Shown one piece after another: positions 1-6,000 of a stretch of 18,908 bases of DNA. This DNA comes from a virus (Duplodnaviria; Heunggongvirae; Uroviricota; Caudoviricetes). The stretch lies in IMG/VR virus record IMGVR_UViG_2713897055_000006; one strand, written 5' to 3'. Made by a program: the position numbers. Position 1 is the first letter of the stretch, and every line of letters begins with the position of its first letter.

Positions 1-3000
1 AACCCGCGTATCTCGTTCCAGGTTGTCGTCAGAGATGACACCTTATACACCAGTCGCCCCTCCGCACAGGGGGATTCACCATGCGAAATTTTTTTTAACA
101 AATGCTCAGTCTGACAGGCAACTGTCAACTGACTGAATTGTGACACAGATTACAGTTGTTACCCACATACCACGAATCAGGTTATGCCTCAGTCATTATT
201 AAACTGCACTTCAGCAAATCCGGAGCCTGATTCACAGGTACTGGATTTGATTGTGACAGTCATTCCTGTCAGCTGAGCACTTTGCAGTAACGGTTGCAGA
301 TTCCAGCGACTGGTCCAGTATTCTTTCCCGTCAACCTTCACTGTAAATGTGTCATCCTCATTATACTTGGAAAACTCAATTTTACCTTTAGCACAATCCG
401 CCGCCATTGCATTAACAGAAACTAATGCAAATAAAACCGCCATAAACATCTTCTTCATACTTAACTCCTTTATTTACCCGTTGTATATAAAAACTGTGAC
501 TTTCTGTTCAGAAACGCTGCTGCTGTATTACTTTCCCATAATGTATTGTTTATTTTTATAACGGGCCTGTCGCCAGTTATCTGACATTCTGGTTGACTAT
601 CTTCATTCACGGCGCGAACAGAACGCGCCCCCTGATGATGGCAATTCAGTATAACGGCCACAGTCCCCAGTATCGCTGATATATTATTAAAGGATATTCT
701 CCCCACTCTGACACCATCCTCTCCCCGATACTCCGGAAGCACATTGCTGATTCGCCCCCAGTTCAGAGTGAGGTCCACGTCTCCCGGCGTCATCGTATAC
801 ACAGGAGCAGTTTCAGACAGTGCCTGACGAAATTCTCTCTGTATCTGCCTGAAGCGTAAGGCTTCTGCTGTGACAGTGACAAAACGCAGAACTGCTCTGG
901 ATGCATCTCTGGTCATTGTATTACCACTGAACTCCATTAACGCCAGATATGATGAAACCAGTGAGTGACGACTGATTTGCATTCCGGAACGTTCCAGCGC
1001 TGCGACACGTTGCAGAGTGGTATAACTGCTGTCCGTTGTCATGGAAACCGTTGTCACACCGGGCACTGATATATGTGTAAAATCTGAAAAACGGTAGAAA
1101 GTATTTGTTGCCGTATTAACGAACCCGGCCACATATAAATTATTTTGCTCAATAATCAGACGAAGATGGTCAAAACGCGCCTGATAGACATCAAGCCCTC
1201 GTATATCCACAGCAAAATAACTGCCCGGCGGGGTGTGGTTAATAACAGACACCGATGTGGTCCCCTGAGATATATGTTCAAGAGGGGTCGATATCTCTGT
1301 CCGTATACTATTTAACGAAGAGACATAACTTTGTTGAGTCGAAAAGTCTATCGTAAATTCCCGGGAATAGGATACCGAAGAAAAACCCAGTAACAGGCAC
1401 AGTACCCATTTAAATAATATACACTTCATATACAGGTGTTCCTTTTGGCTGAAGTAATCAGCACCAGACCCGGCGCAGATATAAAAAAAGGCCCGCAAAA
1501 GCGAGCCTGGTAAATAAATATGGCGCGTTGTACTGGATTCGAACCAGTGACCGATTGCTTAGAAGGCAATTGCTCTGTCCGGCTGAGCTAACAACGCTGA
1601 ATACCGATAATGGACCGCCATCGAGGACTCGAACCCCGCGCAGCCAGCTTCGAAGGCTGGCGCTCTATCCCGATGAGCTAATGGCGGTATGTGATATGGT
1701 GGCCCTTGCTGGATTTGAACCAGCGACCTGGCGATTATGAGTCGCTCGCTCTCACCACTGAGCTAAAGGGCCGGGCGCAGGATAATAACGGTACGTAACT
1801 AATCCTGCAATATCATCCGTTCTGACTGACTAAATCCTGAACTTCCCTGACCGTCTGCTCAAAACGTTCAGTCTCCAGCTCAACGCCAGTTGCACGACGC
1901 CCCAGCGCCATCGCGGCTTTGACTGTCGAACCCGACCCCATGAAAAAATCTGCAACCAGGTCCCCCGGACGACTGCTCGCGCTGATTATCTGCTGCAGCA
2001 TTTCTGCCGGTTTTTCGCACGGATGTTTCCCGGGATAGTACTGCACCGGTTTATGCGTCCACACATCCGTGTACGGCACCTGCGCCGTCACGCCAAAATA
2101 CCGCCGCAGATGCTTATATTCACTCTGCAGTTCCGCATACTGCCGGTTCAGTGAAGTATACGTCTCCAGCAGCTGGTGGTGGGGCTTTTCCAGTTCACCG
2201 CGCTGATGCTTCTCTTCTGCCACCCGGGCAAACAGCGCCTGTAATTTCAGATAATCGCTTTCGTTCGGTAGCTGCCACTGACTGGCACTGAACCAGTGCG
2301 ACACCATGTTTTTCTTTCCTGTGGCATCCACTATCTGTTTTGCCGTTATCCCCAGGGCAGCACGCGCATCACGAAAGTAAGCAATCAGCGGAGCCATCAC
2401 ATGCTGTTTCAGTGCCCTGCCCTTCGCCTCATACCCGGCATCTTTCGGACGATACGGCCCCTGATAATGTTCCGCGAACAGAATGCGCTCTGTGGCGGGG
2501 AAATACGCCCTCAGGCTTTCCTTGTTGCACCCGTTCCAGCGTCCGGACGGCTTCGCCCAGATAATATGGTTCAGCACACTGAAGCGTTCACGCATCATGA
2601 TTTCGATATCAGATGCCAGGCGATGACCACAGAACAGGTAAAGACTTCCGGCAGGTTTCAGCACCCGCCAGAACTGCGCCAGACACTGGTCCAGCCACTT
2701 CAGGTAATCATCGTCGCCCTTCCACTGGTTATCCCAGCCCTCAGGCTTCACTTTAAAGTACGGCGGGTCCGTGACTATCAGGTCAACAGAATTTTCGGGT
2801 AACGACCGGATAAATTCCAGGCAGTCGGCGTTGATTAACTCACAACTGGATATTTTTACAGTATTAAGCATGGATCATTAAGCCTGTCTCTGATAGGCTC
2901 ATTCTGCTTTTGCGCAAAGCAGTGGGCCTGAGGTTTGCTTGTGAACCCAACGCATGAGCAGATGGCTGGTGGGTGCCCCTAACACCCACCAGCCGCCCAT

Positions 3001-6000
3001 TTACCACAAATAAAAAAGCCTTCACTGCGGAAGGCGTCTGTAACAACCGAACTGATAGTCTGCCAGACCCGCCATAACCAGCTGGGTCAGTATTAACTGG
3101 CAGCGTTCGCGTGAAAGGTAAGTATTCTGCGCTATCTCCCCGACTGTCGCCGGTTCGGTAACGCTTAATTCATTAAACACCACTCTGGCGGTTTCTGTCA
3201 TATCCTGCTGTTTTAGCATGTCTTTTTCCCTTTTCTGGTTAACGTGACACACCAATAACTCTTGTCGAAAAAGCCAGCAAGCTGAAAGACAGGTATTCAC
3301 CGCCACCAGCGCGTTTACTGTACTGACGCGATTTCAGTCATAAAAAACCCGCCAGGCGGCGGGGTGTAAAAAATCTTCTAACGTCAGGCATAAAACGCCC
3401 ATCGTTAGAGCAAATTTACCACAGATTCGGGAAAAATCAACAACACTATCGCGTTACCCTCTTTAACTGCCGCTCCGCCCATGCCTCTTCAATGTCAAAC
3501 CGAACCACCAACGTATCGTAAAAGCGTTTCACTGATTTTTTCCACGTATCAAGCGTGATAGCACTCGTCACTTTGCATATGGCATTAAATGCCTCCGTTG
3601 ATGGCAGCCTTTCACAGCCACGACCACCACAACGCTGGCAATCTCTGATAACAGGCATACCACGTTTTACCGACTCTTCACGATGAATGGCGACACCACG
3701 CCCACGGCAATCCTTACAGGCGGTGGAAACCTCACCCTTTCCGCCACACTCCGGACAGGCAACTTTTACCACCTCCCTGACTTTTTTCCATTCTTCCCAG
3801 TAAGACGGATACACGCCTTTTGTGCACTTTGCCCACACTGGTGGCTTACCATCCGGATACTGGATCTTGTTTGTAAAAACCTCGCTTTCAATAAATTTTT
3901 TTTCCGTGACAGCAGGGGCACTGTTTTTTGCTCGCCGCGCTACGGGCATAATCTTCAAACGCATACGAAGCCATTATGCGCATCACTACCGGTTTTATTT
4001 CTGCCGGAAGTTTTCTCAACGCCGCCACACGATCGCACCGACTGAGTGCATAATCTGCCAGTAATTCTGTTGCCCGCGCCCTGTCATTCATACTGATGCC
4101 CATTTTCCCCAGGAACGCAGAAAACCCCATCTCAGCCCGATTCTGTGTCATGCCCTGCGCGGCCATCACATCAGTGATACTCAGCGCATCTTTTGACGTT
4201 GAGGCCGATGCATCGGTCAGGCCAGGGGATTTTGGGGAGTAGTATTTCGGTAAATCTTCCAGTTTCATTTTTTGACCTGCTCTTCATGCATTATGGGGTA
4301 AATCTTCACCCCCATACGTCCACCAGATACTGGCTGACCACGAACGATATTGATTTCATCAAACTGCTCATCGTCCATTAACACTCCCGCATGCGTCAGC
4401 GCATCCAGCGGTGCTTTCAGGATATTGTCCAGGTCGCGACGACGCTTATCCGGTGGCTCTGCAATCACCTTTATCGCCAGCCTTCCGGACAGGCTTAATT
4501 TCAGCCGCTGCTGGCGAACAATAAGCGCCACAGCCCGGCGATAACGCTTTCCCTCCTCCGAGATAAAATATGTGCTGCCACGGCGTCGCCAGTAAGTGTT
4601 CACCGTCGGCGGGTAAGGTAAAACCAAATCTATGAGCATCAGTCACCTCTTTTACCCAAGCACGCCAGTTGCAAAGGCGTGATCAAGAAAACGAAAAATT
4701 AAATCAACCTGAGAACCATGCTTTTCTTCGAACGCCAGAGGATCCGCATGAAGCTCGTTGTGATGCTCCCGACACAGCGGTAGCGTGAAAATATCGTGAG
4801 ATTTTGTCCCCATTCCGCCCTGACCATGACCAATCAGGTGATGGGGATCGTCGGCTGGCTTACCACAACACGCACACGGCTGTGTCTTCACCCAGCGTGT
4901 GTATTTCTCGTTAACCCAGCGGCGACGTTTAGGTCGTTTCATGAAAGATTCCGGAGACTCAGGATCAACGGCAATGCTGACCACCGTCTCTTCCTGTGGC
5001 GGGTTTTGCTGGTGGGCGTGAGGCAGCGGCGCAAGATTTTTTGTGCGCTGCTTCAGTATGCTGGTGGCGGTCTGCTCTCCCGGTACGATGTCGCTTTCAC
5101 GGTACATTGAGCGGATTTTTTCCGCACGCAACCCCAGCGAACGACGTAATACCGCTTCCGGTAGCGCGTCCGCCACCTGATTGCGGACCGCCCACCAGGA
5201 TAATTCAGCCAGCGATAATTCCCGTTCCTGCGAGCCATTCATTGCATGGCGTATGACGTCAATCATCCATGCAGACAGGTTTTGGTGAGCAAGTTGCCCG
5301 AGTGATTCGGAGGTCTGGTCGCGCAGCTGGTTGTCGCAGTGCCAGCACAACACCATTGCGCCGGTACCATAACGGTGAATGACGGTTTCACTGTGGTGAT
5401 AATCGCCGTGTGGCCACTGGCAGGATTTAACATGGCGCAGTAACCAATCAGACAATGCGCCAGCGCCACCAGCAGCACGAATCACTCGTTCGTCGCTGAA
5501 AAATGGCAGTAATGATTTATCCTCCGCCAGCGGCTGGCGAACGGCAGGAACGACCCCGGACGGCAGATTACGCATGCTTTTCGGTTCCGGCTCCACCAGT
5601 ACCCGGGTATTGTGGAATACCGGCATGGATTCACGGCCCGGCTTAACGATCACCAGCCCGAGTTCCGGTACCAGAACAGGTCGAAGTAATACCCGCACGT
5701 TACCTCCAGATGCGTTGCTGGAATGTGCGGGACGGACGCGGTGGGCGTTCGGAATAAGGGAGTCTGACGTAGATTATCCAGTGACGATAATCGAGGGTGA
5801 GGGCTTTCCTAAACTCATATCCACGTCTGCGGTAGTTATGAATCAGCCATTCGGCCTGTTCTTCAGTACAGGGATCGTGCTGATACCAGTCATATTTGAA
5901 TGCGTGAGAACGCCACCCGTGCCTGCTGGCAAAGGCAGAATCAGAATTGCGAAATTTGAAATTATGCGCCATTGTCATCTCCAATGGCGCTGCAGGTTGC

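Follow-up and report, generated by a model that had tools for sequence, protein, structure and literature searches.

The late control region between Q and an M.EcoGII-type methyltransferase gene in a Shiga toxin 2 prophage: serial terminators, a small winged-helix gene and a conserved RNA hairpin

The adenine methyltransferase M.EcoGII is widely used as a laboratory tool, in chromatin footprinting and in RNA methylation; to our knowledge, little is known on how the phage that carries this enzyme keeps it silent. The question is raised anew by a Shiga toxin 2 (Stx2) prophage found in the IMG/VR virus record IMGVR_UViG_2713897055_000006 (Caudoviricetes), of which a stretch of 18,908 nucleotides (nt), here called the window, was analyzed. 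On the minus strand of this prophage a control region lies between the gene of the antiterminator Q and a gene for a methyltransferase of this type, which is followed by tRNA genes and by stx2AB (Table 1). An initial annotation had described in this region a late promoter, two terminators, a small open reading frame (ORF) and a palindrome. How do these elements work together? Our best explanation, to which we give a probability of about 60%, is that a late control composed of two modules, a late switch and a mobile cassette with layers of its own, keeps the methyltransferase off in the lysogen. Within this region the M.EcoGII-type enzyme is preceded by a small gene that almost always accompanies it and by a folded leader of deep conservation.

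The methyltransferase is 94% identical to M.EcoGII over 349 aa, as compared with a reference sequence that was machine-read from the printed supplement and contains a few errors, and it carries the motifs TDPPYF and FMGSGST, that is, DPPY before FxGxG. The identity reaches 99% with the enzyme of phage 1720a-02, which one passage of the M.EcoGII report names as very similar to M.EcoGII (PMC5778455). Judged from these similarities the enzyme is of the non-specific M.EcoGI/GII type. Passages of the same report state that M.EcoGI and M.EcoGII methylate adenine in any context and are silent in lysogens, and that efforts to express this enzyme constitutively were harmful to the cell (PMC5778455). 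A harmful non-specific methylase is a likely reason for tight control.

The first module is a late switch of the lambda type. The promoter-like element noted downstream of Q (3413-3440) is present; it begins 6 nt past the Q stop codon (3448-3446) and aligns base for base and with the same spacing with lambda pR' (TTGAYT ... GGTAAATTTG ... AACGATGGG). The alignment includes the sigma70 pause-inducing element AACGAT, which has the same sequence and the same distance to the -10 element as in lambda (TAAATTtgactcAACGATGGG versus TAAATTtgctctAACGATGGG). The promoter sequence is identical in Stx2_EH1910, Evi, and O104:H4, and transcription probably starts at about position 3406. The first terminator, tR', previously placed at 3340-3364, is likewise present, with a stem at 3363-3348 and a T6 tract, about 43 nt downstream of the pR' start region. 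Given this short distance, an unmodified polymerase should make only an RNA of about 65 nt, whose predicted fold has a minimum free energy of -21.9 kcal/mol and a z-score of -2.65. The surrounding 1.7 kb contain five terminator-like sites, whereas 1.6 +/- 1.2 are found in shuffled sequences, and the promoter, both terminators, the ORF, and the palindrome are each conserved in related loci.

This arrangement closely follows the lambda late region. Q belongs to the same family (32% identity to lambda Q, E 9e-41), the promoter lies just past Q and shares the GGTAAATTTG -10 region, AACGAT is identical and equally placed, and an intrinsic terminator follows that only a Q-modified polymerase should pass. 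Unlike lambda, the leader measures about 65 nt instead of 194 nt, the -10 element is extended (TGn), the interval between -35 and -10, which in lambda is the Q binding site, differs, and Q has 273 aa with a 66-aa zinc-finger insertion and is frameshifted in the window. The StxS small RNA of Stx1 and Stx2a phages is a pR' transcript ended at tR' in lysogens, and the RNA predicted here, which has a U-rich stretch and a terminator hairpin, would in principle have the same origin; StxS, however, derives from a 258-nt leader that is processed to 74 nt and is linked to a 144-aa Q (PMC7547250), whereas here another type of Q and a 65-nt leader are found. The promoter-terminator switch as well as serial terminators under Q are thus known designs. 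The pairing of the small gene with an M.EcoGII-type enzyme, the conserved folded leader, and a hairpin shared with the lambda and P22 leaders are absent from the sources that we reached, and literature searches on lambda tandem late terminators and on EcoGII in lambdoid phages found nothing.

The terminator tR' is also the place where the second module begins. Homology to Evi, with which the window shares the Q module, stops at position 3342, the final T of tR', and homology to the phiP27 group, which has a different Q, starts at position 3363, the first base of the tR' stem. Thus, tR' is the joint between the Q-pR'-tR' module and a downstream cassette, and judged from these limits the region is composed of two joined modules, a lambda-type late switch and a mobile cassette that starts at the tR' hairpin. 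The initial annotation had regarded a protein-coding ORF inside the late leader as unusual. Neither part of this claim holds: the small ORF lies downstream of tR' and is the first gene after the terminator, and the mobile cassette of which it is part (phrog_331) is very common, the stretch from Q to the ORF being present with at least 80% coverage in 1078 of 5426 complete Escherichia coli genomes.

The cassette is found behind at least four Q families, sometimes with intervening genes. A species-level scan yielded 34 loci in Escherichia, Salmonella, Klebsiella, Kluyvera, Citrobacter, Enterobacter, Buttiauxella, Mangrovibacter, Mixta, Proteus, Providencia, and Plesiomonas. The small ORF is followed by the methyltransferase in 32 of these loci, with 338-355 nt between the two starts. 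Seen from the side of the methyltransferase the coupling is equally tight, as 70 of 71 viral contigs contain an intact small ORF, which in 69 lies 149-151 nt upstream. The same order of genes occurs in annotated relatives, for example, in Stx2_EH1910, phiP27, and 1720a-02. A non-Stx prophage of O104:H4 (FDAARGOS_349, 109,150-110,788) carries the 601-nt region comprising pR', tR', ORF, terminator, and hairpin with six differences; this region precedes a 349-aa methyltransferase, which is probably M.EcoGI, and then the three tRNA genes, and there is no stx at this place. The strain FDAARGOS_349 is of the German outbreak lineage. Decayed copies of the cassette are rare: of two such loci, one of them in Mangrovibacter yixingensis (locus 2501-2569), the first has a small ORF cut short by a premature stop, and the second lacks the methyltransferase and the start of the small ORF and has kept the leader.

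The 65-aa ORF at 3022..3219, which had been described as coding for a small winged helix-turn-helix protein, has stood up well to closer inspection. The protein matches phrog_331 (E 1e-37), a family of unknown function, and a protein search found 334 relatives in Enterobacterales. Compared with phiP27 there are nine synonymous and no non-synonymous differences, and over 206 pairs the median ratio of non-synonymous to synonymous substitution rates is 0.15. Judged from these values, the small ORF is a genuine gene and evolves under purifying selection. The AlphaFold2 model (predicted local distance difference test, pLDDT, 90.6) consists of three helices (residues 4-16, 26-33, and 37-49) followed by two strands (53-56 and 59-62), that is, a winged helix with a beta-hairpin as wing. 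Its fold neighbours are winged-helix domains of IclR proteins (TM score up to 0.82) and DNA-binding domains of MarR proteins, and furthermore the N-terminal domains of O-methyltransferases and the RNA-binding domains of SelB, as in the SelB-SECIS complex. A fold search among viral proteins returned generic small winged-helix proteins, including Z-DNA-binding domains, with weak E-values. In Pfam the best scores stay below the curated cut-offs (TrmB, 18.0 bits with a cut-off of 25.6; MarR_2, 14.7 with a cut-off of 27), and therefore the database name TrmB family is not secured for this protein. PADLOC gave a generic match for the methyltransferase and a chance-level match for the small protein, and nothing more.

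Downstream of the small gene the second terminator is found as claimed, overlapping the stop codon of the ORF, which sits within the terminator hairpin (stem 3035-3018, followed by T6). This hairpin covaries across genera, with double changes in four of its six pairs. The perfect palindrome noted at 2964-2994 also exists (2994-2983 with 2975-2964, 12 of 12 positions complementary, 7-nt loop). It is not a free-standing element, however, but forms the tip of a longer RNA hairpin of 69 nt and 23 bp, which is conserved and shared with lambda and P22. When the window is compared with other genera (Enterobacteriaceae, Erwiniaceae), the spacer of about 150 nt between the small ORF and the methyltransferase shows an identity of 0.76-0.82, whereas the four-fold degenerate sites of the adjacent gene reach just 0.31-0.49. 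A 60-aa ORF in the spacer (3046..2864) was considered and is ruled out by 1-nt insertions and deletions among close relatives. In a structure-aware alignment 96% of the cells of the hairpin are paired, as compared with 31-46% when the partners are slid, and 11 pairs change on both sides. In a plain MAFFT alignment Pc and Pa are 98-99% paired and the outer five pairs of P1 100%. The leader folds better than shuffled sequences in E. coli (z -3.4) as well as in Proteus (z -3.2). Within the hairpin G.U pairs outnumber A.C mismatches 105:9, and thus it is the sense strand that folds, most likely as RNA. Rfam has no family at the hairpin; between 2800 and 3500 there is no match at gathering score, and up to E = 10 only matches at chance level.

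Table 1. Features of the late control region and its surroundings (positions of the window; the range P1 denotes the tip of the extended hairpin)
Feature	Position	Strand	Details
Gene order of the Stx2 prophage		-	Q 4268..3446, control region 3445..2960, methyltransferase 2871..1813, three tRNAs 1772..1521, then stx2AB
Q antiterminator gene	3446..4268	-	lambda Q family, PF03589, two domains plus DnaJ-type zinc finger
pR' late promoter	3413..3440	-	-35 TTGATT 3440-3435; extended -10 TGgTAAATT 3420-3413; spacer 16 nt
Pause-inducing element AACGAT	3401..3406	-	-10-like, sigma70; sequence and -10 distance as in lambda
Predicted terminated leader RNA	3342..3406	-	about 63-65 nt; 5' hairpin, U-rich linker, tR' hairpin
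tR' intrinsic terminator	3342..3363	-	stem CCCGCC/GGCGGG 3363-3348 (6 bp), T6 3347-3342
Chi octamer GCTGGTGG	3303..3310	-	sense strand
Conserved bipartite motif TTGCTG-N17-TATTGG	3252..3280	-	promoter-like geometry, about 32 nt upstream of the small-ORF start
65-aa winged-helix protein gene (phrog_331)	3022..3219	-	ATG 3219, stop TGA 3024-3022, good Shine-Dalgarno AAGGG
Terminator 2, intrinsic	3012..3035	-	stem GCCTTC/GAAGGC 3035-3018 (6 bp), T6 3017-3012
Extended RNA hairpin	2940..3008	-	69 nt, 23 bp; RNAalifold, pair counts, covariance-model matches
Helix Pc	3008-3004 : 2944-2940	-	part of the extended hairpin
Helix Pa	3000-2995 : 2959-2954	-	part of the extended hairpin
Helix P1 (the palindrome)	2994-2983 : 2975-2964	-	tip of the extended hairpin
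3' bulge, 4 nt	2963-2960	-	part of the extended hairpin
Inverted Chi octamer pair in P1	2965..2993	both	2993-2986 on -, 2965-2972 on +
Alternative helix Pb	2936..2960	-	2960-2953 : 2943-2936; xGCUCAUG with CACAAGCx'; excludes Pa and Pc
Helix Pd enclosing hairpin P3	2895..2929	-	Pd 2929-2926 : 2898-2895; P3 GCUUU-loop-AAAGC 2920-2906
Methyltransferase start region	2869..2880	-	near-invariant TGATCYATG; GATC 2876-2873, ATG 2871-2869
Beta-class N6-adenine methyltransferase, M.EcoGI/GII type	1813..2871	-	352 aa; PF01555; identity to M.EcoGII
Chi sites in the window	2172, 2965, 2986, 3303, 5008, 5060, 5466, 8659, 14714, 14759		

A covariance model was built from the cassette leaders. In lambda it matches between tR' and gene S (45,015-45,155, 41 bits, E about 1e-7 to 1e-9). 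The lambda hairpin proper (45,015-45,089) reads CGUGA..GCGGGU-GGCAGGAGGU..AACCUCCUGCC-GUUUU-GCCCGU..UCACG and has the same three helices with compensatory changes. Further matches with 26-38 bits lie upstream of holin genes in P22 (locus 601-690), ES18, HK620, and SF11, and in these phages as in lambda the hairpin is found about 100-170 nt upstream of the holin gene. In a set of 18 sequences that covers both families, pairing is kept at 96% over the 23 pairs, of which 10 show double changes; over both structure-aware counts the slid controls reach 29-46%, and none of 500 shuffles attains the observed values. About 59 phage records contain the leader of the methyltransferase type and 188 that of the holin type. 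P22 resembles the window also in its short leader of about 58 nt (annotated +1 at locus 413, t late 443-471) and in having the hairpin before the first late gene. The gene that follows the hairpin is the holin gene 13 in P22 and the methyltransferase gene in the window, where the small gene and its terminator are inserted ahead of the hairpin. The P22 record, though richly annotated, shows no feature at the hairpin. We also considered whether the LPR2 RNA of lambda is the extended hairpin. This is refuted, since the published probe maps to lambda 44,816-44,850 and thus to a different hairpin. The probe of this Hfq-bound RNA of about 63 nt corresponds to a second hairpin right after tR', so that the lambda leader, too, contains structured elements in series.

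The sequence downstream of the tip might adopt a second fold. The closing pair of the alternative helix Pb (2960-2936) covaries, being CG in 15, UA in 8, AU in 7, and UG in 4 cases, and in a set of 96 sequences TA in 41, CG in 28, AT in 14, and TG in 4. The start region of the methyltransferase has no recognisable Shine-Dalgarno sequence and can pair with RGGUCA at 2947-2942 (helix Pe; 93% paired, with little variation). In hairpin P3 the centre of the loop stays self-complementary while its sequence varies (GCGC, TGCA, ACGT, CGCG), which would fit the binding site of a dimeric DNA-binding protein or a loop-loop RNA contact. Together, the features of Pb, Pd/P3, and Pe suggest two alternative folds of the leader, and they are not a proof of them.

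From these elements we suggest the following course of events. The promoter pR' would fire constitutively, and the pause element would be the site where Q loads onto the RNA polymerase. Without Q the polymerase would halt at tR', and transcription that escapes this terminator or starts at a promoter of the ORF would halt at terminator 2. With Q both terminators would be passed, and transcription would run from the small gene through the leader and the methyltransferase to the tRNAs and stx2. The structured leader would in addition limit or time the translation of the methyltransferase, so that the two terminators and the leader would act jointly to silence the enzyme in the lysogen. The earlier proposal that serial terminators make the downstream genes dependent on Q fits the sequence, and it fits the silence of this type of methyltransferase in lysogens, as stated in passages of the published report (PMC5778455).

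The 69-nt hairpin itself would be an RNA processing or switch element, most likely a site of the ribonuclease III (RNase III) type. Phage RNase III sites of the T7 type are irregular hairpins of about 23 bp which lie between cistrons and in which an asymmetric bulge on the 3' side separates a lower from an upper stem. The extended hairpin, likewise placed between two cistrons and with stems below and above its 3' bulge, resembles these sites, and the resemblance is one of shape. Cleavage at the 3' bulge would leave the mRNA of the small gene with P1 as a 3' hairpin that stabilises it and would free the downstream strand, so that Pb could assemble at the 5' end newly created on the methyltransferase mRNA. 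This sequence of events would explain why both Pa and Pb are conserved. According to its title, a paper by Daniels et al. from 1988 (Virology 167:568) reports RNase III processing sites in the lambda late transcript, and these sites may correspond to the hairpin; a published RNA-seq paper on RNase III makes no mention of prophage leaders. If the hairpin controls processing or translation of the late transcript, it adds a layer to a textbook regulatory circuit.

Several points weigh against this explanation. We infer the start site, termination and its efficiency, and processing from the sequence, and the RNase III idea draws on the shape of the hairpin and on the title of the 1988 paper. A generic consensus scan misses pR', which has 8 of 12 matches, and calls no promoter between 2700 and 4400. 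The U-tract of terminator 2 is degenerate outside the E. coli group, and this terminator may not terminate there. The covariance-model alignments are fitted to the supplied structure and so lean towards it, the count based on the MAFFT alignment arrives at just 80% paired positions overall, and P1 is without a U-tract in the cassette family. According to a passage of the M.EcoGII report the purified enzyme is active alone in vitro (PMC5778455), and the small protein is therefore unnecessary for catalysis. Finally, Q is frameshifted in the window, and the switch may be inoperative in this particular prophage.

It is possible, though less probable than the joint silencing outlined above, that the small gene is a moron, an independently expressed prophage gene driven from a promoter of its own and closed by terminator 2, and that its function is unrelated to the methyltransferase. 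In nearly every locus the small ORF is preceded by an intrinsic terminator, a bipartite motif, and a good Shine-Dalgarno sequence, and the motif (consensus TTGCTG-N12-AGAGTTAYNTG) recurs in loci of more than 12 genera with its two parts at a constant distance and the sequence between them variable. The resulting layout, in which a promoter-shaped motif (3280-3252), a Shine-Dalgarno sequence, an ORF, and a terminator succeed each other, recalls the morons of lambdoid late operons, where a promoter-like motif, a gene, and a terminator are inserted into the operon. In Buttiauxella two genes on the reverse strand lie between Q and the cassette, which makes transcription from pR' doubtful there. 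However, the -10-like second hexamer TAYNTG is without the usual T at position -7, and the motif escapes the consensus scan. The small gene possibly has a weak promoter of its own. The small gene, unlike a moron, is locked to its neighbour gene: it virtually never occurs without the methyltransferase and the leader, which argues for a shared function. Moreover, such a moron overlaps our best explanation more than it excludes it. In fact, given the conserved promoter-shaped motif upstream of the ORF, one possibility is that terminator 2 mainly insulates the methyltransferase from the small ORF's own transcription. An RNA hairpin within the bipartite motif (CAGA/TCTG pairing) was considered and rejected, as by eye neither the E. 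coli nor the Proteus variants preserve this pairing.

A more far-reaching version of the joint silencing proposal, which we put forward only tentatively, combines two claims: the hairpin would be an undescribed ancient RNA element of lambdoid late leaders, namely a processing-dependent switch between Pa/Pc and Pb/Pe, and the small protein would be a dedicated partner or regulator of the methyltransferase. We infer such a regulatory tie from the locus, and in passages of the published descriptions M.EcoGII is treated as acting alone (PMC5778455). Like M.EcoGII and M.EcoGI, the methyltransferase of the window, with its 94% identity to M.EcoGII, belongs to a prophage-borne type that is silent in the lysogen, and O104:H4 has the same leader; unlike them, it stands within a Stx2 prophage upstream of tRNAs and stx2, and an upstream small gene and a structured leader are not mentioned in passages of the M.EcoGII report (PMC5778455).

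The near-constant coupling at fixed spacing could also mean that the small protein is a DNA-binding controller like the C proteins of restriction-modification systems, which would bind the palindromes of the spacer (P3, P1, or both) and so set the transcription of the methyltransferase; this we consider rather unlikely. The winged helix is nearest to DNA-binding domains of the IclR and MarR type (TM 0.8), and P3 is a near-perfect DNA palindrome, which in several taxa becomes a perfect one of 16 bp. As in the case of the C proteins, a small helix-turn-helix protein is encoded just upstream of a modification enzyme that is harmful if made prematurely. But C proteins have a helix-turn-helix of the Xre type, recognise C-boxes ahead of the gene that encodes them, and regulate a nuclease, whereas the cassette has a winged helix and downstream palindromes, and no nuclease is linked to it in any locus. 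In addition, the consensus scan found no promoter-like site between the small ORF and the methyltransferase, the commonest variants of P3 are asymmetric by one base, and the G.U pairing is strand-asymmetric in P1, Pa, and Pc. Winged helices bind RNA too, as the SelB-SECIS complex among the fold matches illustrates.

Still less probable is that the palindrome works as DNA. Each arm of P1 contains an exact Chi octamer, and this inverted pair could serve as a RecBCD point which protects linear phage DNA or drives the recombination of modules. The window contains 10 copies of Chi (GCTGGTGG), six on the minus and four on the plus strand, as compared with 0.59 expected from shuffles. In Enterobacteriaceae loci that were found via the protein and not via the motif, the sense-strand copy in P1 and the 21 nt surrounding it are invariant. 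Several viral contigs diverge right after GGGCGGCTGGTGGGTG or after the end of the hairpin, that is, they have mosaic joints at the Chi-bearing arm. However, only the sense copy is conserved, and the antisense one occurs only in some E. coli variants. In most Proteus, in some Providencia, and in Plesiomonas Chi is absent and the hairpin is kept by paired changes (GACTGTAAAAGTG/CACCTTTACAGTC, GGCTGGTAAGTG/CATTTACCAGCC), and lambda, P22, and HK620 also keep the hairpin without Chi. Chi is therefore rejected as the main cause of the conservation, and the 105:9 ratio points to single-stranded sense RNA. The structure appears to be the conserved feature, and Chi at most a secondary overlay in the Escherichia clade. 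Similarly improbable is a third transcription terminator or pause site at the hairpin: in lambda the P1 stem is followed by GUUUUG, and a further lambda hairpin right after tR' coincides with the LPR2 RNA, but in the cassette family AUCU or AUUC and no U-tract comes after the stem, the place of such a tract is taken up by pairing in the helices Pa and Pc, which are 98-99% kept as pairs and would be superfluous in a terminator, and the alternative helix Pb covaries.

The frameshift in Q bears on the whole prophage. Alignment with the intact 273-aa Q of Stx2_EH1910 and of Evi shows that an extra A splits the gene within an A-run at 3896-3903, which has eight A in the window and seven in the relatives. 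The first fragment (4268..3888) codes for 126 aa and the second one (3964..3446) for 172 aa, each with one PF03589 domain. With a query of 241 nt, the matches listed among complete E. coli genomes all span 240 nt, one base fewer. The frameshift thus seems to be private to the window and may reflect either a true mutation that inactivates Q or a sequencing error in the homopolymer. If real, it may impair Q-dependent read-through in this prophage. The terminators, the leader, and the broken Q bear directly on its toxin output, since transcription has to traverse the whole stretch from pR' to reach stx2.

Among the neighbouring features, the tRNA at 1697-1772 (minus strand) with the anticodon CAT is called as tRNA-Met by ARAGORN, whereas its counterpart is annotated as tRNA-Ile (ileZ) in phiP27 and O104:H4. 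At gathering score Rfam matches the 5' half of STnc100 downstream of stx2B (1-114, minus strand), a sok antitoxin RNA of the hok/sok type (8416-8591, minus strand), and DicF (17638-17689, plus strand).

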